NCBI GenBank assembly: GCA_029856155.1
Contig: JAHQWL010000052.1
Span: 64,001-128,000, forward strand
Reading direction: 5' to 3'
From: Promethearchaeia archaeon
Lineage (GTDB): Archaea > Asgardarchaeota > Lokiarchaeia > Sigyniarchaeales > SOKP01
Length of the DNA stretch: 64,000 bases
Shown here: positions 25,589 to 35,737 of the stretch, piece after piece
Layout: each line of letters begins with the position of its first letter
How positions within the stretch are numbered: the first letter of the stretch is position 1
Notes under the pieces: model-generated
Seen by the model: only the letters and a program-made list of their open reading frames with translations
Databases searched by the model: none
Told to the model about the DNA's origin: nothing
Translations under genes and position numbers: made by a program

Positions 25589-27991
25589 TCAAATTTCACG
25601 CATCATTAACCACTGGGAATATAATTGAGAGACTTGCATCATGAAATATGCATCGTTTATAGAGCCATTTTTTAATTGTGATATAAGAGTTACAAGTTCA
25701 TTTTTTTTACTCTCATGAAATTGCCGTAATCTATCAGATTCTACTATTTCTTCTAATAATCCCATATATGTGTCCCAATTTATAGTTGTAGGAAGAGTAG
25801 TAGTTACCTCAGCATCTTCTACTTTTTTTATCTTATATAAAGAATGATCCATGTGAAATTGCTTTACGTATTCATAAATCTGTTCACAAACTTTTAGAAA
25901 TTCTTGTGGATTATAGTCAATACCAGGGTCTTGTTTAAGACCTATAGATGTTATATCTATCCATGAAACATCTGTTCCTTTCATAGAAAAGATGGGTATT
26001 TCATATTTACGAGAAAGCTCTAATTCATGAGCACAATCGACTGAATTGAATACAGATTTATTAGTGCCTAAGAAGAATATAACATCACTAATAGGAACAT
26101 TTTTATCCATAAAATCATCAATATTTCCAGCTAAATCTTGCTCACAGAGAAGTACATCATATACTTCAGGTTTAGCTTCTAGATATTCACCTAGTGCAGC
26201 TAATTGGTAAGGTTCATAATCAATAACTGCATGAGAAATAAAAATAGCCATACTAGCTCTTTGTTTGAGATAATCTCGTAAGGTGTCTAAATCACGTTTA
26301 ACTATCAGTTTTTCTTCATCTGATAACGGATTTTCTTCAAACTCAAATGTTTCAAGAGTCTTAAGCGGCCAAAGAACATATGGCAGTGCATCAAATTTAT
26401 TCTTATTTAAATATAGATATTTAATCTTAGAATTTCCCAGACTTTTTGGTAAACTCTCAAGATTGTTTTCATTTAAATCTATGGATTCTAGTTTTTCGCA
26501 TCTTCCAATTGATTCTGGTAAAGAAGTAAAACTATTTTTACGTGCACTAATACTCATAAGTGAAGCCATCTTATCAAGACAATCAGGCAATGAAACTAAA
26601 ACATTTTCATCAACGTTTAAAGTAGTTAAGGAAATTAAATTACAAATAGCAGGAGGTAGACTTATTAATTGATTCTTACTTAAAATTAATTTCTCCAATT
26701 TTTTTAAATCTCCAATTTCGGTTGGTAATCTTTCAATTTCATTACCCTCTAAATGTAATTCTTTTAATTTCTCTAACTTTCCAATACTTGAAGGTAATGT
26801 TTTCATTTTTCCATTCGATACGACCAAATACAACATATCTTTCAATGAACCAATTGATTCAGGAAGTGCTGTTAAGGGAGTATTTCTAATATCAAGAGAA
26901 GATAGTTTCTCTAGATCACCAAAGTTTTCCGGTAAATTAGTTATTTTACAATCTTGAATGCTAAGACGCTCTAATCCCTTCATACGAGCAAAAGAATTTG
27001 GTAAACTGCCTATATTATTTCCACTTAAATCTAGTCCAAACACATTATCTAGATTACCTATTGATTCAGGCAAAGTTTCAATTTGATTGTTTCCCAAATC
27101 TATAGAATTCAAGTTTTGTAAATTACCAATTGATTCTGGAATTTGTTTAATTTGATTATTCTCAAAACGAAAGATTTTCAATGATGTTAAATTGCCAATG
27201 CTTTGTGGTAAGGCTTCAAGTTTATTATCTTTCACAAGAAGGGTTTGTAGAGTTGATAATTTGCCTATTGTATCAGGTAAAATACTCAAACCCATTGAAC
27301 TAATCTCCAACTTCTCAAGCGATATAAGTTCTCCAATAGAGTTTGGTAATTGAGAAATTCGAGTTACTCCTAGATCAAGAGATGTAAGCGATTTAAGTTG
27401 TCCAATATTAGGTGGTATCTCTTCAATGTTATTATGTCTGAGTGAGAAGGTTTTTAAAGAACTCAGATTATACATATTTTCTGGAATTTTAGTAAGTCTA
27501 TTATCACTTAAATCAAGGTCAGTTAATGCTCTACAAGCTTCGATTTCCACGGGTATTTCCCTTAATTTATTAGTACGAAGATCCAATTTTTCTAAATTTT
27601 TAAGATTGGAAATCCAGCTTGGCAGTTCTTTTATTTCATTTACACCCAAATCAAGTTGTTTCAAAGCGGTACAGTTAGCTAAGCTAGAAGGGAGCTCGTA
27701 AAGATTATTTTGTTGTGCCGAAAGCCACTCCAAATTTGTTAAATCCCCTATAGAATCTGGTATAGTTTCAATTTTATTACCATAAAAGAGGAGTGCATTC
27801 AATTTTTTACAATTTCCGATATTTTCTGGTAAGTTTGTGAGCGTCCCTCGAGTTACTTGAATCCGGGTAACATGGTTGTCTTCAACTCGAAAATTATCAG
27901 AATTCCAACTTGAGCCTACTTTTTGTTCCAAATCCTTAAGAACGTCTATCTCTTCTGTAGGAAGGATAAAACCCATATATTCTTTGCTCAT
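25589..27991 (-). CDS. LRR (22 repeats)-TIR protein, TIR catalytic Glu present
   Basis: ~23-aa LP..IG.L..L..L.L..N repeats; IFISHA...SDVIFFLGT....NSVDCAHELELS...IPIF. Confidence 0.85.
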   Translation of the reverse strand: MSKEYMGFILPTEEIDVLKDLEQKVGSSWNSDNFRVEDNHVTRIQVTRGTLTNLPENIGNCKKLNALLFYGNKIETIPDSIGDLTNLEWLSAQQNNLYELPSSLANCTALKQLDLGVNEIKELPSWISNLKNLEKLDLRTNKLREIPVEIEACRALTDLDLSDNRLTKIPENMYNLSSLKTFSLRHNNIEEIPPNIGQLKSLTSLDLGVTRISQLPNSIGELISLEKLEISSMGLSILPDTIGKLSTLQTLLVKDNKLEALPQSIGNLTSLKIFRFENNQIKQIPESIGNLQNLNSIDLGNNQIETLPESIGNLDNVFGLDLSGNNIGSLPNSFARMKGLERLSIQDCKITNLPENFGDLEKLSSLDIRNTPLTALPESIGSLKDMLYLVVSNGKMKTLPSSIGKLEKLKELHLEGNEIERLPTEIGDLKKLEKLILSKNQLISLPPAICNLISLTTLNVDENVLVSLPDCLDKMASLMSISARKNSFTSLPESIGRCEKLESIDLNENNLESLPKSLGNSKIKYLYLNKNKFDALPYVLWPLKTLETFEFEENPLSDEEKLIVKRDLDTLRDYLKQRASMAIFISHAVIDYEPYQLAALGEYLEAKPEVYDVLLCEQDLAGNIDDFMDKNVPISDVIFFLGTNKSVFNSVDCAHELELSRKYEIPIFSMKGTDVSWIDITSIGLKQDPGIDYNPQEFLKVCEQIYEYVKQFHMDHSLYKIKKVEDAEVTTTLPTTINWDTYMGLLEEIVESDRLRQFHESKKNELVTLISQLKNGSINDAYFMMQVSQLYSQWLMMREI

Positions 27992-30372
27992 TGTTGTCCA
28001 CCTCCAAGATATTGTTGCATAACCTTCTTTTGTTGCATAAAACCCATGAAAAAGCCAGAAAGTTGAGAAAGAAATAATCCTTCTCCTCCGACCTTAGCGG
28101 ATTGTAGGCTATTATATATTCCAGTTAAAGATTCCTTGTTCTTTTCAAAAAATTCTTTCATCTCTGGCAAATGAATAATGCGATCAAGTTCAGCTTTAAA
28201 AGTTCCAAAACCAGTAGGATCACCTACTTCAGCAGCCGCTTCTTTTAGAAGAATGGAGGTTTTATCTTTAAAGATATTGTGTGAACGTTTTAATTGTTGG
28301 ATATAACTATATACATTCTCACAAAAACCATCGAAATCAGCTGGTGTAAATTCATGTCCTAACTCACGGCTAAGATCGGCACTGGATAGGTCGCCCCAAC
28401 TAACATCCAAACCCTTTAAAGGCACTACTTGAATACCCTGATTCTTAGCATTTTTTAAGATTTTAATCATTTCCGGGGAATTAATAGAGCCGGCTGTGGC
28501 AAGAAAAAGAACTAAATCAGTAGCATTAAGGTTAGATTCAATTGGAGGAAGAATAGCAAATATTTCACTTTTAGCTTCTAAAAATTCAGATAATTCTGAT
28601 ATACGATGAGCCTCTGCATCTACTTCAGTATGAATTAACATAACTGCTATACTTGCTCGCTGACGACAATATTCTAAAATAGCATTAGTATCTCTTTCGG
28701 CAATAGCTTGTTCTTCCTCTGAGAAAGGATTACCAGCAATGTCTAGATCCTTTAAAGATTCCATTATATATATAAAATATGGAATATGTTTGAGTTGATT
28801 CTCACCTATACTTAAGTCTCTTAAATTCAATTTAGTTATATGCTCAGGAATTTCGCTTAACTCGTTATCAGCAATCCAAAAAGTATCCAATGATTCTAAA
28901 TTTGAGATAGAATCAGGTAACGATGTTATTTTATTACCACGTAAAAAAAGTCTGGTTAATAATTTTAACTGGTCAATGCATTCAGGAATTGACCCTATAT
29001 TATTGTATGAAAGAACCAAATCATCTAATTTTTCCAATTTACAAAGGGAGGGAGGAATATTTGAAATTCTATTACTTCCAAGATCTAAATTAGTTAAATT
29101 AGTTAATTCTCCTATTGATTCTGGGATTTCGGTTATACGATTTGTGCTTAAATTAACTTTTTTAAGGGAAGTTAACTCTCCAAAATTAGCAGGAAGGGAT
29201 CTTAAACCATTACTTTCACATGTAAATTTTCTAAGTTTTTTCAAATTACAAAAGGACTGAGGAAGTTCCATGATTGCATTATATACTGCTTTATCGTCAT
29301 TGGTTGACCAAGATCCATTTAAATTTAACTCTTCCAACTCTATTAGATTACCAAAACTTTCGGGTAATGAATCAATTTTATTCCATTGAAGATCTAAGAA
29401 TCTTAATTTGGTTAAATTTCCTATTGTATCAGGTAAAAGATCCAATTCTTTCATTACTAAATTTAGCCCAATTACGTGTTTATTGTCACAAGCGAAACCA
29501 AAATGGCTTACATCGACTGGTTTCTCAGAGGTTTCTCGCTTATATTGTTCGATTCTGCCTTCTTGCGACTCTTGTGGAGCTTGTGTTTGATCTCCATACT
29601 GAGCGAGAATATTTTGAATATTTTGATGGACTGCTTGAGCATGTTGTTTAGCGGCCTGGATAGCTGATTCTTCAGTCATGCCCAATAAAGGTTTCAAACC
29701 TGCTAAAGTTGGATCAGCAACACCCAATTGTTCAATTCCAACATCAAAAGTTTTTTTCAATTGCTCTTGATATTCTGGAGTAATCATTGAATCATAATAT
29801 TTGATACTTTCCTTTTCCAATTCTTCAAGGGTTATTTGAGTAAACATTAAATCCTGAATTCTTTGAGTTTCTTGTTTATTTATTTTTTGAAGTTTAAAGT
29901 TTTCCTGCATAAACAATGCCATTGCTTTTCCTTTTTGTTGCGCTTTCTCCTCGTCCATCTCTAGCATGGATTTTATTTGCTGAACAGATGGATGGTTTTC
30001 TCCATACATAGGTATGAGCATATTAAGCTGTGTTTGAAGATTTGCTTTCATTGCTGGGTTGACTTGCGCCATATATTGACTTATATAGGTATTTTCCAAC
30101 TGTTCCAACGATAATTGTGCCAATTGTTCCTGTGTTGCTGCTTGAGCTTTAAATGCTTGAGCTTGCTGATTTAGAATGGTCTCGACAGACATTTGAGTTG
30201 AAGCAGGTTGGTATGCCATCATCTGCTGTGCATATTGCTCTTTACTTTCATCCCTATTTTCACGACAAGGGATTTTCTCTGCTATTAATTTCTCAATTTC
30301 CTCAAGGAATTCTGCTTCTGATGCTACTAAAAAAACACCATTATATTCTTTTAATTCTTCAATAATTATCAC
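27988..30372 (-). CDS. LRR (10 repeats)-degenerate TIR protein with Q-rich helical insert
   Basis: LRR repeats; C-terminal region colinear with partner TIR (VMLIHTE, TDLVLFLAT..SINSPEMIKIL); ATGA overlap with partner; real start may be ATT 30363 after GGTGAT. Confidence 0.82.
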   Translation of the reverse strand: MIIIEELKEYNGVFLVASEAEFLEEIEKLIAEKIPCRENRDESKEQYAQQMMAYQPASTQMSVETILNQQAQAFKAQAATQEQLAQLSLEQLENTYISQYMAQVNPAMKANLQTQLNMLIPMYGENHPSVQQIKSMLEMDEEKAQQKGKAMALFMQENFKLQKINKQETQRIQDLMFTQITLEELEKESIKYYDSMITPEYQEQLKKTFDVGIEQLGVADPTLAGLKPLLGMTEESAIQAAKQHAQAVHQNIQNILAQYGDQTQAPQESQEGRIEQYKRETSEKPVDVSHFGFACDNKHVIGLNLVMKELDLLPDTIGNLTKLRFLDLQWNKIDSLPESFGNLIELEELNLNGSWSTNDDKAVYNAIMELPQSFCNLKKLRKFTCESNGLRSLPANFGELTSLKKVNLSTNRITEIPESIGELTNLTNLDLGSNRISNIPPSLCKLEKLDDLVLSYNNIGSIPECIDQLKLLTRLFLRGNKITSLPDSISNLESLDTFWIADNELSEIPEHITKLNLRDLSIGENQLKHIPYFIYIMESLKDLDIAGNPFSEEEQAIAERDTNAILEYCRQRASIAVMLIHTEVDAEAHRISELSEFLEAKSEIFAILPPIESNLNATDLVLFLATAGSINSPEMIKILKNAKNQGIQVVPLKGLDVSWGDLSSADLSRELGHEFTPADFDGFCENVYSYIQQLKRSHNIFKDKTSILLKEAAAEVGDPTGFGTFKAELDRIIHLPEMKEFFEKNKESLTGIYNSLQSAKVGGEGLFLSQLSGFFMGFMQQKKVMQQYLGGGQQ

Positions 30373-30507
30373 CTAATAGGAATTATGATTAAAATTTTGA
30401 TTGTGTATATTGATATGTACAATTAATGAAGCTTAAGAATTTTTATATGTTTGCTTTCATATATTAACAAATCAAATGAAAATTATTTGAAATTAATCTA
30501 ATAAACA

Positions 30508-32964
30508 GTGACAAAGATGGAAATAAACTCTTTCAAAAGAGGCAATTCTAGAAAATCTAACTATGAGCAGACATCTAGTGAAGCAAAAATATCTAAAAAA
30601 GTAATAGATTCCGTATTATCGCAACATACACTTGAAGTAAGGGATATCGAAATTAGTCCTGATGGTAAATTCTTAATATCTTGCTCTGAATGTGAAGAAA
30701 ACGAAAATCCATATATAATAGTTTGGAATGTTGATGAGCTTCTAGAAGGAGACACTAAACCTGAAATTATACTCCACGCAGAGAAAAAAGATATTCAAAA
30801 TACCAAAATTACTAATTGGTTATTATGTGTTGATTCTGCAGTTATAGAATTAGGAAACATTAAATGGTGGGTCATATGTGCTGGAAGCATAATTGGAGAT
30901 ATCTACATTTGGTGTTTCAGGCGTACCCTTGATTCAAGGAAATGGGATTTTGAGAATTATAAATCTATTATCTTGTCTGGAAGTAATGGAACCTTTGGAA
31001 ATTATCCAAATGCCATTTTTGATATTAAGATTCAAAATAATATAAATCAAAATAACTTACTTGATTTATACTATGTTTTAAATAATATCCATACTACTTG
31101 GAAAGAAAAAACTTATGATAACACACTTAATAAGTTGACAATATCGATCGATGAATTAGGAATGATTAGAACAGTAGATAAACCTAAAATTATTGGTACA
31201 AATGATGTGTGGATAACAAAAATAATGGTCAATAGAGATCTTAAAGATGAATTAATAATTACAGGCTCTAAAGAAGGAAAAGTTAATTTATGGAATCTTA
31301 GCGCTGGAACTGATTCAACATTAATAGGTGAACATGATGGATCAATTACGGATATAAGCATAATTAGAAATGGTAAAATGATTGCGTCTTCTTCTAATGA
31401 TACGAAAATAACTATTTGGGAAAAAGATAATCAAAACAAATATCATAAGAAAAAAGATCTTATAGGGCATACAGAAGCTGTTTTAACAATTGATATTCAG
31501 ACTGATGACAATTATTTACTTTCTGCAGGTAAAGACAATACTATTAAAATCTGGGATTTAAATGAATTAACTTGGATAAGAAGTATAGATATGCATTATT
31601 ATGTAGATAAATATGAAAAAAATTTAAAAACTACTGTAAAAGGAGTTCAGATAAAGGGACTAAATTTTATTAGAAATATTAAAATAACTCCTGATAATCG
31701 ATATGTATTTATATCAAAATATGACAAAATAATTATTCTACGTAATTTTGGCTCTGTATGGCATTTCATCCAACAGTTAAAATTTATTAAAAATTATGAT
31801 CCCGAGTTATATCGAAAAATTTATGGAGATAATTTAAGGCAAATTGCTAAATATAGTCCAGAAAATCTAGAGTCCCTCAATAAAATGTATAATATCATAA
31901 AAAACCGTTTAATAAAAAACAGGAAACTTGAATTAGCAGGCAAAACAGAACAAAAAATAGACTATAATATGCGTGAATTAAGCCCCCTTTTTATACCTTC
32001 ATTTATGAAATTTGAGCCCAAATTAAAAGCCCAAAAGGAATTCATTTTAGGTGTACAACAAAATTATGAAGCTTTTTGGCATAGCATAAGAAATTCTATA
32101 TTTAAACTGCCTGATACCCCTTGGGGTTTCAAGTTATATATCACCACTTCAGAAATGGATGAAAAGATTGAAGATTCAAATTTCGTAGAAATAACTGCTC
32201 TGACAGGAGAGATGCCTTACATCATTTTAAAAGATCGAACTCAAGCTCAAATCCGATTTCTAATGGTATTAAATAGAGCTCAAACAAGTTTTATCCCTTT
32301 AATAAACAATATTACCATAGATATTGAAGATGATAGAGGAGATAAAGATACTTTAGTATTTTCTGATTTTACATATTCAAAAAATTTCCTTCGAATTTTA
32401 ACAAATCCTACTCGGTCCTTAGATAAAGTTAAACAAATAAATGAGCCAGAGCACATATATTACGCAGATTGTACATTTCAGATTGATGAAGGTTATAGTG
32501 TTGAGGATTTTGCTAATATTTTCATAAGAAAAATTACAATAGAATATACAGCTAATTTAGAACCCGCAGAATCAACAACAAGCGATGAAGAGGATTTCAA
32601 AATCATTGAAGCTTTTAAAAGCAATTTTATATATCCACTAACACCGAAGACTAAGATCCAAATCGGAAAAGGTTTAAAATCAAAATTAGGGAAAATTATT
32701 GATGAATATTTTGCTAAAATAATCGTTGTAGAATTTTTATTAAGTTTTTGGGGGTTTATTGAAGGCGGTTTACCCTCTATAATCCCCAATTTTGAGATGC
32801 CTGATTTGATTTCAATGCTGGTAAATCTAGCATCAATAAGTATTATTGCAATAATTTTCATAATGATGATAGTGCAATCACGTAGTGGAAAGAAAAGAGA
32901 TATTGATATAGATGAATTGGATGAGAAAATGAGAAAAAGGAGGCGAAAGAAATTTGGAAAATAA
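30508..32964 (+). CDS. WD40 beta-propeller protein with large central domain and two C-terminal TM helices
   Basis: GHTEAVLTIDI...LLSAGKDNTIKIWD and other GH..WD repeats; hydrophobic pair near C-terminus; basic tail. Confidence 0.8.
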   Translation: MTKMEINSFKRGNSRKSNYEQTSSEAKISKKVIDSVLSQHTLEVRDIEISPDGKFLISCSECEENENPYIIVWNVDELLEGDTKPEIILHAEKKDIQNTKITNWLLCVDSAVIELGNIKWWVICAGSIIGDIYIWCFRRTLDSRKWDFENYKSIILSGSNGTFGNYPNAIFDIKIQNNINQNNLLDLYYVLNNIHTTWKEKTYDNTLNKLTISIDELGMIRTVDKPKIIGTNDVWITKIMVNRDLKDELIITGSKEGKVNLWNLSAGTDSTLIGEHDGSITDISIIRNGKMIASSSNDTKITIWEKDNQNKYHKKKDLIGHTEAVLTIDIQTDDNYLLSAGKDNTIKIWDLNELTWIRSIDMHYYVDKYEKNLKTTVKGVQIKGLNFIRNIKITPDNRYVFISKYDKIIILRNFGSVWHFIQQLKFIKNYDPELYRKIYGDNLRQIAKYSPENLESLNKMYNIIKNRLIKNRKLELAGKTEQKIDYNMRELSPLFIPSFMKFEPKLKAQKEFILGVQQNYEAFWHSIRNSIFKLPDTPWGFKLYITTSEMDEKIEDSNFVEITALTGEMPYIILKDRTQAQIRFLMVLNRAQTSFIPLINNITIDIEDDRGDKDTLVFSDFTYSKNFLRILTNPTRSLDKVKQINEPEHIYYADCTFQIDEGYSVEDFANIFIRKITIEYTANLEPAESTTSDEEDFKIIEAFKSNFIYPLTPKTKIQIGKGLKSKLGKIIDEYFAKIIVVEFLLSFWGFIEGGLPSIIPNFEMPDLISMLVNLASISIIAIIFIMMIVQSRSGKKRDIDIDELDEKMRKRRRKKFGK

Positions 32965-33820
32965 AATTTTAAATATTATTATAACCTGTTCGGTTCAAAA
33001 TGATTTTATCGAACAGTTAGATATTCACCCTGCACCAGAAGATAATTTAAAATTAGGATACGAACAAGTTTCAAATAAATGGATGGAGTATTTTTTAAAT
33101 CAGAATAGAGAAACAAGTGAAGCAAATGTAAACCAATTTATATCATGGTTAAAACTAAATGCTAGTAATGAAATGATTGGTGGATCTCTATCATATCATC
33201 ATATCTTAGAATATTTTAGACATAGAGTTCATATCGATTATGATGAGACAAGAAGATTATGGGAAGGAGATAGAGTAAGCCAGTTTATAAAAGATTTAAT
33301 GAATAAAGCTTCTGAATCAAATTCAAGTGAAACTAGTGGAGTAGAGTATCAATGCATTCATTTAAGGGATTGGCATGACCAAACCGACGAATCACAAAAA
33401 GGAGAAATGGATCTTTTTGGACCTCACTGCATAAAAGGTACTTATGGAGCAAAATTTATATCACCATTGAATGAATTAATTCAAGAACATCATGATTTTA
33501 ACGTGATAATAAATTCAAATAGTCTTAGTTCATTTGACGAGACAGATCTCGAATCTGTAATAGAAACAATTATTAGAAATGCAGGTAGTTCTCATAAAGA
33601 AGTAAAAATAGGAGTTTTTGGCGTTATAACTAATGTAAAAGTATTTCTTTTAACGTTTGAACTAATGGTTATCCATAAATTTAAGAATGTTTATGTCTGC
33701 GGTGATTTCTGTGCAGGTTTTGACAAGCAAGGGCATGATACGGGTATTAACTCAATGAGAAATATATTAGCAGCAAATATTGTAGATCAAAATAGATTTA
33801 GAGAAATCTTTAATATATAA
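32954..33820 (+). CDS. Isochorismatase/nicotinamidase-fold protein with substituted catalytic triad
   Basis: SVQNDF, RDWH, GPHCIKGTYGAKF, GVITNVKV; start overlaps the WD40 stop. Confidence 0.78.
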   Translation: MENKILNIIITCSVQNDFIEQLDIHPAPEDNLKLGYEQVSNKWMEYFLNQNRETSEANVNQFISWLKLNASNEMIGGSLSYHHILEYFRHRVHIDYDETRRLWEGDRVSQFIKDLMNKASESNSSETSGVEYQCIHLRDWHDQTDESQKGEMDLFGPHCIKGTYGAKFISPLNELIQEHHDFNVIINSNSLSSFDETDLESVIETIIRNAGSSHKEVKIGVFGVITNVKVFLLTFELMVIHKFKNVYVCGDFCAGFDKQGHDTGINSMRNILAANIVDQNRFREIFNI

Positions 33821-33942
33821 CAAGTTATTTTTTTTTCTTTTCTTTATTATTCTCTTTAAGGTTATTTTTTATTACAAAAGAACTTATTTTAATTTAAAAT
33901 TTTTATACATATTAGAAGATATGAAATTAATTTAATAATAAT

Positions 33943-34887
33943 ATGACCGCAAAACAATTACAGGAAGAAATATTAAGCTTAAAGAAAAAAAATGATGTCA
34001 CAATTTTAGCACATTATTATCAACCAATTGAAATACAAGAAATTGCTGATTTTTTAGGAGATTCTCTTGAATTATCAAGTACCGCAAAAGAAAAGGCAAA
34101 CTCAGAATATATAATTTTTGCTGGAGTCGATTTTATGGCAGAAACAGCTTCGATACTAAATCCTGATAAGCATATATTAATCCCTAATCCAGAATCTTGT
34201 TGTCCTATGGCAGCTTTCCTTACTCCTGAAATGGTATTGGAATTTAAGAAAAAAAATCGGGGGTTACCTGCAGTTGTATATGTAAATTCAACTGCAACTG
34301 TAAAAGCGGAATCTGATATCTGTTGTACATCTGCTAATGCAGTTAAAATTGTCGAAAAAATTAGTCATGAATTTGATATTGATTCTGTTTTATTTGGACC
34401 TGATGCAAATTTAGCAGATTATACTGAACAATTATCTAAAATACATACAATTAAAATGCCTGAGAATGGACATTGTTATGTTCATTCACAAATTATCAAA
34501 GAGGATATAAAAATAATAACGGAAAAATATCCTAAAGCAGAACTTCTCGTTCACCCAGAATGTATTAGGGAAGTAAGAGAGTTAGCAAAACTTGTGGGTT
34601 CAACTACTGGTATGTATAATTATGTTAAAGAGAGTAATTCTAATATTAATGAATTCATAATAGGAACGGAAGTAGGACTTTTAGAACGATTAACTCAAGA
34701 TTTTCCAACGAAGAGGTTTTATCTTGCAAAAGAAAAACTAATTTGCCATAACATGAAAAAACATAATCTTGATTTAATTAAATATCTCTTAGAGAATTTG
34801 GATGATAAAACATTTGAGGTTAAAGTACCTCTTAAAATTGCGGAACGTGCTATAAAACCAATTGAAAAAATGTTAGAATTTTCATAA
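33943..34887 (+). CDS. nadA: Quinolinate synthase
   Basis: ILAHYYQ, GDSLELS, GVDFMAETA, CPMA, YVNSTA, CYVH, HPEC, GSTTG, CHNMK. Confidence 0.95.
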   Translation: MTAKQLQEEILSLKKKNDVTILAHYYQPIEIQEIADFLGDSLELSSTAKEKANSEYIIFAGVDFMAETASILNPDKHILIPNPESCCPMAAFLTPEMVLEFKKKNRGLPAVVYVNSTATVKAESDICCTSANAVKIVEKISHEFDIDSVLFGPDANLADYTEQLSKIHTIKMPENGHCYVHSQIIKEDIKIITEKYPKAELLVHPECIREVRELAKLVGSTTGMYNYVKESNSNINEFIIGTEVGLLERLTQDFPTKRFYLAKEKLICHNMKKHNLDLIKYLLENLDDKTFEVKVPLKIAERAIKPIEKMLEFS

Positions 34888-34936
34888 TTAATAAAAATTG
34901 AGATTTAAGATTTCTTAAATTATATCTTTTGAAAAA

Positions 34937-35737
34937 ATGTCATTTATTATATTTATAGCATGTTATTTTACTTGCATAGTTATTTTTGGTATTGTTATGA
35001 TCGTGGTTTACATAACAAAATATAAAGATCTTCCTATCGAAATTTGGAAACCCGACGCAGCATGGACTCGGGCATCAATCTACTTTTCTTTCTGTAATAT
35101 TATTATAATATTATCTGGCACTGCAGAACGGATACTAAACCAACCTTTATTTACTCTAATACAAATTACCAATCCTTATTGGGTTGTATATTGTTGTTTT
35201 TGTTTTATCTATGTATTTTTTGCATATTGGATTTTATGGTCTCGAATGACACTCACCTTTAATCGTAAGTATTATATTGGCTCAGAGATTATATTTGGTC
35301 TTATTTGGGGTTTCAGTACGGGAGGACTCCTTCTTTCATTTTATCATCTTTGGGGTTTAATAAATATACCTAGTTTGGTTCATTATTTACTTACTTTCGC
35401 CTCTATGGGGATATGGCAGTATTTTTTTCAAGATTATTTCTGGGACATTTATGTTAGCCCAGAACATGATACTCCGAAGTCGATTATTATCAAAACTTTA
35501 GTCTGTCATATCCCTAATGTAGCAATTACTCTGGGATTTCTAACTTTATGGAATAATTATGCTATCTTTATAGCATTCTACATTTTTGCATTAATTGCAT
35601 CAACTATTTTTCAAAAATTCCCAGCTCCTTGGGCTAAGGGAATATTCCACGCACCAATGATTAAGCCTGGAATCGGAGGACTTCCACATGGTTCAGGATA
35701 TTTAGGAGATATAGCGCAACCTAAGGAAAAGATATAG
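34937..35737 (+). CDS. Hypothetical integral membrane protein
   Basis: ~7 TM; conserved-looking WDIYVSPEHD. Confidence 0.7.
   Translation: MSFIIFIACYFTCIVIFGIVMIVVYITKYKDLPIEIWKPDAAWTRASIYFSFCNIIIILSGTAERILNQPLFTLIQITNPYWVVYCCFCFIYVFFAYWILWSRMTLTFNRKYYIGSEIIFGLIWGFSTGGLLLSFYHLWGLINIPSLVHYLLTFASMGIWQYFFQDYFWDIYVSPEHDTPKSIIIKTLVCHIPNVAITLGFLTLWNNYAIFIAFYIFALIASTIFQKFPAPWAKGIFHAPMIKPGIGGLPHGSGYLGDIAQPKEKI

Follow-up and report, generated by a model that had tools for sequence, protein, structure and literature searches.

Comparative genomics suggests an undescribed NAD+-linked signaling unit of LRR-TIR proteins and a membrane WD40/pseudo-nicotinamidase pair in Asgard archaea

When genes for leucine-rich repeat (LRR) proteins with a TIR domain lie beside a gene for a nicotinamidase-like protein, do they belong to one pathway or do they only share an address? 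This question is raised by a locus in a 64,000-nucleotide stretch of DNA, which we call the window, from a Promethearchaeia archaeon (GenBank assembly GCA_029856155.1, contig JAHQWL010000052.1, positions 64,001 to 128,000). The source is an Asgard genome of 4.1 Mb that is 97% complete, and the closest protein relatives of the locus are labeled Promethearchaeota or Lokiarchaeota. Two overlapping LRR genes (LRR1 and LRR2) are divergent from an overlapping pair that encodes a WD40 protein with two transmembrane (TM) helices (WD40-2TM) and an isochorismatase/nicotinamidase-like protein (ISO), and nadA follows. Our open reading frame (ORF) calls reproduce exactly the five genes, overlaps and spacings of the initial annotation of this DNA, and Pfam assigns the proteins to LRR families (LRR1 and LRR2), WD40 (E 2.8e-23), Isochorismatase (E 3.1e-9) and NadA (E 1.9e-103). 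That annotation had proposed the set as a candidate new immune or signaling system linked to nicotinamide adenine dinucleotide (NAD+). Comparative genomics suggests an undescribed NAD+-linked signaling unit, and we regard it as an even call whether the locus is a composite NAD+/TIR unit, in which the LRR-TIR pair and the WD40/ISO pair work together through NAD+ chemistry.

LRR1 is a soluble protein of about 22 LRRs (Pfam LRR_14, E 2e-72), followed by a TIR domain and a helical tail of about 80 aa, and it has orthologs in nine other species of its genus at 70-84% identity. LRR2 begins with a helical region rich in Q and M, followed by about 11 LRRs, a pseudo-TIR domain and a helical tail. The two are paralogs, with 28% identity over 500 residues that include the C-terminal domain (E 1e-73), and this shared domain is part of a large Asgard LRR protein family (92 clusters). 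Pfam TIR_2 (PF13676) is matched by 28 of 34 aligned relatives that are 41-80% identical to LRR1, with a best E of 3.9e-9. An AlphaFold2 (AF2) model of LRR1 residues 572-722, with a predicted local distance difference test (pLDDT) score of 88.5, found its best VIA-align match in the RPS4/RRS1 entry 4c6t (Z 14.6, root mean square deviation 2.4 A, 132 residues); SPARTA TIR-APAZ, RPV1/RUN1 and SARM1 followed at Z 12.5-14.4. Nearly all of the top 30 VIA-align entries are TIR domains, as are the top Foldseek matches. Given the TIR_2 matches of the relatives, the confident model and its superposition on solved TIR domains, we conclude that the C-terminal domain of LRR1 and LRR2 is, as modeled, a TIR fold, as had been proposed.

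The two TIR domains of the pair are not equivalent. Of 66 TIR domains of the family, 55 have Glu at the position of LRR1 Glu656, and in the model this residue stands on helix 80-91, after strand 66-71 (strand C). Going by the SxWCxxEL-type motif and not by residue-level superposition, we infer that Glu656 (DCxxEL) is the counterpart of the catalytic Glu of SARM1 and plant TIR domains. All 10 LRR2 orthologs carry Ile at this position together with a deletion of 10-11 residues in the BB-loop region, and a full-length LRR2 ortholog from an unrelated metagenome (locus L048, 40% identity) has Met there and the same deletion. Because the Glu and the BB-loop segment are missing across orthologs, we read the LRR2 domain as a conserved pseudo-TIR. 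Purifying selection acts on it as on the rest of the locus (ratio of nonsynonymous to synonymous substitution, dN/dS, 0.07-0.21), and for this reason LRR2 is, as far as conservation can tell, a maintained non-catalytic partner of LRR1 and not a decaying copy. The LRR1 TIR is apparently active and the only one of the pair that looks catalytic. Thus the paired LRR-TIR paralogs described at first do exist as coupled genes with TIR folds, but not as two equal TIR proteins.

A hydropathy scan found no TM or other hydrophobic segment in LRR1 or LRR2, in agreement with the earlier description of a Toll-like receptor domain order without the TM helix. Since there is neither a signal peptide nor a TM helix, the LRR and TIR domains are both expected in the cytoplasm. 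Pfam returned only LRR families for these two proteins and no NB-ARC or NACHT NTPase, for which there is also no space between the LRR cap (residue ~560) and the TIR domain of LRR1 (from residue 572). Residues 1-290 of LRR2, which gave no significant Pfam match, are 64-96% conserved within the genus and recognizable in loci L048 and L023.

ISO matches PF00857 (Isochorismatase) at 37.6 bits, above the cut-off of 27 bits, and its nearest solved relatives are the nicotinamidases 3s2s (E 3.3e-5), 6a8l and 3o94. Alignment to 3s2s and 6a8l places Lys229 at the catalytic Cys and Ser or Asn at the catalytic Lys, and the N-terminal xxQNDF motif places Ser13 at the catalytic Asp. These replacements of the Asp-Lys-Cys triad are conserved in 24 of 24 aligned ISO members (alignment A2, 43-84% identical), in which Asp139, His141 and His158, the metal ligands, never vary and align with the motifs of the solved enzymes. 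Further near-invariant positions are Ser13, Ser188/Asn189 (beside the invariant Asn187), Lys229, Glu151 and Lys161, and a helical insert of about 60 aa contains an invariant Tyr81 and an invariant Arg91-Val92-His93 (RVH motif). With a dN/dS of ~0.10, ISO looks like a catalytically dead nicotinamidase, conserved as a pseudoenzyme that has kept its metal site; the pseudo-nicotinamidase of the initial annotation is borne out by the fold, the family-wide loss of the triad and the retained ligands. A separate, real pncA with an intact triad is found in 44 of the 54 genomes of the genus, and the copy of the window's genome is located ~17 kb ahead of the start of the window. With 69 clusters (90% identity) among 5.8 billion cluster representatives, the ISO family is small, and it is confined to this class, where 24 of 161 species genomes have it, compared with 0 of 239 elsewhere in the phylum (E<=1e-15). 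Within the genus it is patchy, occurring in 15 of 54 genomes with the window's own counted.

We compared the neighborhoods of 30 ISO genes, 28 of which were informative for TIR adjacency. Every one of the 30 has a WD40-2TM gene immediately upstream of ISO, in members of five GTDB families of the class and at ISO identities as low as ~38%, so that WD40-2TM and ISO are, by synteny, an invariant, obligate pair. The flanks of the locus are of housekeeping types (2-hydroxyglutaryl-CoA dehydratase subunits, Roadblock, ThiF, a hexapeptide transferase and a winged helix-turn-helix regulator), and in the window's genus they form a backbone, HGD-HGD-Robl-ThiF-Hexa-[slot]-nadA-...-HTH, in which the content of the slot varies. 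It holds LRR1, LRR2, WD40 and ISO in 10 species of the genus, with LRR2 and WD40 head to head; WD40 and ISO only in genomes G018, G022 and G087; a 557-aa NUDIX protein in G017 (L019:8072-9745 (-)) and G002 (L021:8524-10197 (+)), two species that have no WD40/ISO; and other genes in G012. The C-terminal NUDIX domain of the 557-aa protein, which the window's genome lacks, is closest to NadM-type ADP-ribose pyrophosphatase and NtrR Nudix domains. The N-terminal ~410 aa of the protein gave no match, and a comparison with the WD40 protein, as a possible relative, found no relation. From these arrangements the locus is, in our reading, made of two separable modules, LRR2/LRR1 and WD40-2TM/ISO.

Separable as they are, the two modules recur together. 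TIR-repeat genes adjoin WD40/ISO in 16 of the 28 informative contexts, and at least five architectures are seen. Ten species have LRR2 and LRR1 as a divergent pair. In genus g16, three species have one co-directional LRR-TIR (820-900 aa), and L023 and L024 have between one and three that are likewise co-directional but measure 550-740 aa. G147 encodes a TIR-TPR protein two genes further downstream, and in L023 ISO is followed by an LRR2-like gene, with a WD40-TIR gene nearby. The G147 protein (L044:13711-16374 (+)) has an N-terminal TIR and more than 700 aa of TPR repeats and is cut by the contig end; a Ras/Roc-like GTPase gene lies upstream. In a tree of TIR domains the WD40/ISO neighbors are spread over at least four clades, with family members from outside the context survey interspersed among them, and on the ISO tree the TIR-adjacency trait needs at least 3-5 changes. 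By a rough estimate, from a handful of TIR genes among ~4000 genes (the window's genome has eight TIR-domain profile matches), chance adjacency is ~0.1-0.4% per genome. The expected co-location in other genomes therefore holds for TIR-repeat genes and the WD40/ISO pair, but the genes do not make up an obligate set of four or five.

A second canonical pncA (233 aa, with the Asp-Lys-Cys triad and the metal site intact) lies directly downstream of LRR1 in G024 (L014:2848-3549 (-)) and G086 (L033:14326-15027 (+)), and G094 carries the same extra gene on a separate contig (C144:4850-5548); all three genomes keep a housekeeping pncA elsewhere. An additional nicotinamidase after LRR1 is what would be expected if LRR1 releases nicotinamide. 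Given the recurrent TIR adjacency and this extra pncA, a functional NAD+/TIR link between the modules is well supported by comparative genomics. The extra pncA, together with an ADP-ribose-type NUDIX protein as alternative occupant of the slot, gives the neighborhood a consistent NAD+ theme.

The composite reading builds on what is observed, namely the protein folds, the lost residues, the obligate pairing of WD40 with ISO, and TIR genes and pncA that recur as neighbors; NADase activity, ligand binding by ISO, physical contacts and a biological role in either defense or physiological signaling are conjectural. One module would consist of translationally coupled, soluble LRR receptors, with the pseudo-TIR protein LRR2 as regulatory or sensor partner and LRR1 as executor. 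The other would place the WD40/beta-sandwich protein at the membrane through its 2-TM hairpin, together with its obligate partner ISO, in which the metal and the pyridine pocket would be kept. Ligand binding by the LRRs would cause TIR-TIR assembly, the LRR1 TIR would cleave NAD+ to nicotinamide and an ADP-ribose-type product, and ISO would bind the pyridine product without turnover and relay the event to the membrane-anchored WD40 scaffold. The fuller version of this idea, a cytoplasmic, eukaryote-like innate receptor pathway of Lokiarchaeia-type Asgard archaea, in which an LRR-pseudoTIR/LRR-TIR heteropair makes an NAD+-derived pyridine signal that is read by a dead nicotinamidase on a membrane-anchored WD40 scaffold, we consider doubtful.

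Several observations weigh against the composite reading. The C-terminal domains of LRR1 (P0001) and LRR2 (P0002) themselves match nothing in Pfam, TIR_2 (PF13676) included, at E<=10, and PDB sequence searches with the TIR profile (alignment A1) and with a single relative found no TIR match and hence gave no residue-level alignment of the Glu. The WD40/ISO pair has no adjacent TIR gene in 12 contexts, and G018, which is 98% complete, has the pair, and its whole genome yields no close match to LRR-TIR at E<=1e-20; conversely, L048 carries an LRR2/LRR1-like tandem in an unrelated context without WD40/ISO. The locus sits on a vertically inherited housekeeping backbone and not in a defense island. 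PADLOC-DB v2 matched no system with the five proteins, with no match for LRR1, LRR2, ISO or NadA and two weak repeat-level matches for the WD40 protein, and structure searches recognized no effector, enzymatic, pore-forming or lytic fold in the latter. Finally, the Ser and Lys that ISO conserves where the triad once stood could form a new active site.

The modules may instead be neighbors without a shared pathway, in which case WD40/ISO would be a membrane-associated regulator or sensor of NAD+/nicotinamide homeostasis that sits with nadA and salvage genes, and the LRR-TIRs would be general Asgard signaling or scaffold proteins that accumulate there. The deepest-branching WD40/ISO pairs (35-56% identity) occupy the Hexa-nadA slot without a TIR gene, as would be expected of such neighbors, and G018 manages without a close LRR-TIR match, the equivalent slot of sister genomes holds the NadM/NtrR-type (ADP-ribose) NUDIX protein, and generic LRR-TIR genes are solitary in variable contexts. 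Yet TIR genes of five architectures and several clades adjoin the pair, also outside the nadA backbone, which is hard to obtain by chance, and the extra pncA is attached to LRR1 and not to ISO. We therefore rate mere neighborhood as unlikely. Alternatively, ISO may be a re-tooled enzyme whose metal site, Ser13 and Lys229, perhaps with the RVH insert, modify or destroy a pyridine nucleotide or the TIR product, so that it would process or terminate the signal while docked on the WD40 scaffold. The near-invariance of the triad replacements and of Arg91-Val92-His93, Tyr81, Glu151 and Lys161, and the low dN/dS of ISO, fit this idea, but a ligand-binding pocket would be conserved equally strongly. 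We know of no isochorismatase-superfamily enzyme that works without the Cys nucleophile, which counts against catalysis by ISO, and we think such re-tooling distinctly unlikely.

The locus could also encode an antiviral system of the abortive-infection type: on recognition of a viral protein by the LRR pair, the TIR would deplete NAD+ and WD40-2TM would damage the membrane, with pncA and nadA to contain the harm to the cell itself. Proteins that join a TIR to repeats are typical of conflict systems, ISO is patchy even within the genus, and close species, such as G005 and G087, differ in whether they have the LRR pair. Across window positions 25589-35737, synonymous divergence (dS) from G108 (L036) changes from 0.008 in the LRR1 LRR array and 0.06 in LRR2 to 0.40 in the LRR1 TIR, 0.49 in WD40, 0.98 in nadA and, in the ORF after it, 2.2. 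This mosaic suggests that recombination or gene conversion has recently carried the LRR block between species, and it would likewise suit a conflict system. Against this stand the PADLOC result, the housekeeping flanks with no defense or mobile-element gene seen among the neighbors, and the lack of a recognized pore-forming or lytic fold. Moreover, the TIR is unusually conserved (70% mean column identity across genera in alignment A1), and the LRRs are under purifying selection (dN/dS ~0.16). An antiviral role of this kind is thus highly improbable, and the immune system of the initial annotation is not upheld, with no PADLOC system matched, housekeeping flanks and purifying selection on all genes.

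How, then, does the composite NAD+/TIR unit compare with known systems? It is like Thoeris, in which a ThsB TIR works with a ThsA-type effector that binds an NAD-derived product, in that a TIR gene is linked to a protein with an NAD-moiety-binding fold, in the logic of a sensor TIR, a small molecule and a receptor or effector, and in its patchy distribution. Unlike Thoeris, the locus has no SIR2, SLOG or Macro effector and no PADLOC match; its TIRs are fused to long LRR arrays as an active/pseudo pair, its candidate receptor is a dead nicotinamidase tied to WD40-2TM, and its modules are separable. Adjacent LRR and TIR paralogs with a catalytic Glu, in LRR1 a candidate one, in only one TIR recall plant RRS1/RPS4, whose heterodimer entry is also the closest match of the LRR1 TIR model. 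However, LRR1 and LRR2 differ from RRS1/RPS4 and from STAND paired NLRs in having no NB-ARC or STAND domain and in the order LRR then TIR, and unlike the head-to-head RRS1/RPS4 genes they are co-directional, overlapping and archaeal, with no evidence of a commonly descended pairing. The order of an LRR array and then a TIR is that of Toll-like receptors, although LRR1 and LRR2 have no signal peptide or TM helix and LRR1 apparently keeps an enzyme-type Glu, as in SARM1 and bacterial TIRs. With the NADase TIRs of SARM1, SPARTA TIR-APAZ and AbTir, the LRR1 TIR shares the fold (Z 12.5-14.4) and, judged by motif, a conserved Glu on the helix after strand C, but identity is 14-20%, the usual Trp before the Glu is replaced by Asp/Cys (DCxxEL), and the NADase activity of LRR1 is putative. 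ISO resembles PncA in its PF00857 match with nicotinamidases nearest, its Asp-His-His metal site and its DWHD and PHC-KGT-GA motifs; it departs from PncA in the triad, replaced by Ser, Asn/Ser and Lys, in the ~60-aa helical insert, in always lying directly downstream of a WD40-2TM gene, and in coexisting with a separate real pncA in the same genomes.

If the fuller, innate-receptor version of the composite reading is true, it would describe a TIR signaling route without counterpart among described bacterial and eukaryotic systems. At this locus LRR-TIR proteins with a Toll-like receptor domain order form an apparently active/pseudo pair, which recalls plant sensor/helper receptor pairs, and ISO on its membrane scaffold is a candidate for a new kind of TIR-product receptor; should it prove to be one, it would be a new class of component. 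The obligate WD40-2TM/ISO pair is an undescribed, class-specific unit even if the function is homeostatic and not immune. Nature has also set up experiments through which the NAD+ hypothesis can be put directly to the test, in species with and without each module and in the three with an added pncA. Literature searches found no description of this gene set, and two surveys of Asgard defense systems (PMC11291487, PMC13700489) make no mention of LRR, WD40, nicotinamidase or isochorismatase; together with the PADLOC result, this agrees with the earlier statement that the set was not recognized as a described system.

The WD40 protein comprises a beta-propeller (residues ~1-365), a helical bundle with an immunoglobulin (Ig)-like beta-sandwich (371-745), a C-terminal 2-TM hairpin and a basic tail. 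In the window's protein the hydropathy of helix 771-789 is strong and that of helix ~737-760 weaker, and the hairpin is clear in relatives, in line with the membrane anchoring claimed before. Given the Lys/Arg-rich tail and the positive-inside rule, the protein is probably membrane-anchored with its bulk facing the cytoplasm. Pfam found nothing significant in its second half; the AF2 model of residues 371-745 (pLDDT 77) matched only generic Ig-like sandwiches (RhoGDI, PDE6D, UNC119, CBD) at Z <= 5.9, RhoGDI being the one at 5.9, and ESM Atlas look-alikes of the middle domain, at scores of 0.77, were dismissed as noise. A profile of the helical/sandwich module found 59 clusters among 1.84 billion representatives. 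Its distant relatives begin with a Ser/Thr kinase (P0188, P0196), LRRs (P0203, P0205, P0209) or a double WD40 (P0189, P0191), and no ISO gene was found beside them. Because all of these relatives end in the 2-TM hairpin, the module resembles a membrane anchor or scaffold whose sensor heads are exchangeable, and it may be an undescribed membrane-anchor module. In one metagenomic lineage an in-frame stop splits the WD40 gene into 406 + 264 aa (L027:7622-9970).

Table 1. Features of the locus, in window coordinates
Feature	Position	Strand	Basis or remark
LRR1	25589-27991	-	ORF, 800 aa
TIR of LRR1 (residues 572-722)	25826-26278	-	alignment A1, AF2 model, fold matches
Glu656 codon, motif DCAHELEL, candidate catalytic Glu	26024-26026	-	family alignment and model
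LRR2	27988-30372	-	ORF, 794 aa, GTG start; 4-nt overlap with LRR1
Pseudo-TIR of LRR2 (residues 566-705)	28258-28677	-	Ile for Glu; 10-11 BB-loop residues deleted
Q/M-rich N-terminal region of LRR2 (residues 1-290)	29503-30372	-	matches no known family
Divergent intergenic region LRR2/WD40 gene	30373-30507	.	135 bp, AT-rich
WD40 protein gene	30508-32964	+	ORF, 818 aa
Helical and beta-sandwich module	31618-32742	+	AF2 of 371-745, profile search
Predicted C-terminal membrane hairpin (residues ~737-790), then Lys/Arg-rich tail	32716-32877	+	sequence and hydropathy
ISO (pseudo-nicotinamidase; isochorismatase/nicotinamidase-like)	32954-33820	+	288 aa, TTG start; 11-nt overlap with WD40 gene
nadA (quinolinate synthase)	33943-34887	+	starts 122 bp after ISO

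The window's NadA is well identified (TIGR00550 329.8 bits, cut-off 262.9; NF006878 352.4 bits, cut-off 294). Its gene had been counted in the set, but we rejected it as a component and treat it as a neighbor only, because it belongs to the conserved chromosomal backbone, stays beside the Hexa and HTH genes when the slot holds the NUDIX protein or other genes, and is absent beside WD40/ISO in genus g16, L023 and L026. In a single-contig genome of the same genus, the nadA ortholog contains one in-frame TAA (G006:C1:1953865-1954803). After nadA the window has an ORF of 266 aa (34937-35737 (+)), fast-evolving and with no Pfam or NCBIfam match, which is kept 3' of nadA in several, not all, species of the genus.

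Reads with the locus come from sediment and salt-marsh DNA metagenomes, and no RNA sequencing run listing it was found. Two of the WD40/ISO contexts, L026 and L040 (G065), are 99.9% identical from ~370 bp upstream of the WD40 gene onward and wholly different before that point. There, one has an LRR-TIR gene that ends 75 bp before the breakpoint, and the other has genes for a cupin and a citrate synthase. Either a contig is chimeric, or the rearrangement is real and recent.

Elsewhere in the window's genome, a generic LRR-TIR gene of 559 aa adjoins an Arf-like GTPase gene; we rejected a conserved context for it, as the neighborhood is not kept in other genomes. Four more large proteins (~510-1260 aa) with a more distant C-terminal TIR are encoded in G000 (C79:7656-11626, C81:14522-14902 and C61:17996-18397; L030-L032). 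They have a DEWQ-type motif, with Glu in three and Gln in one, and two of them lie in tandem on C79.

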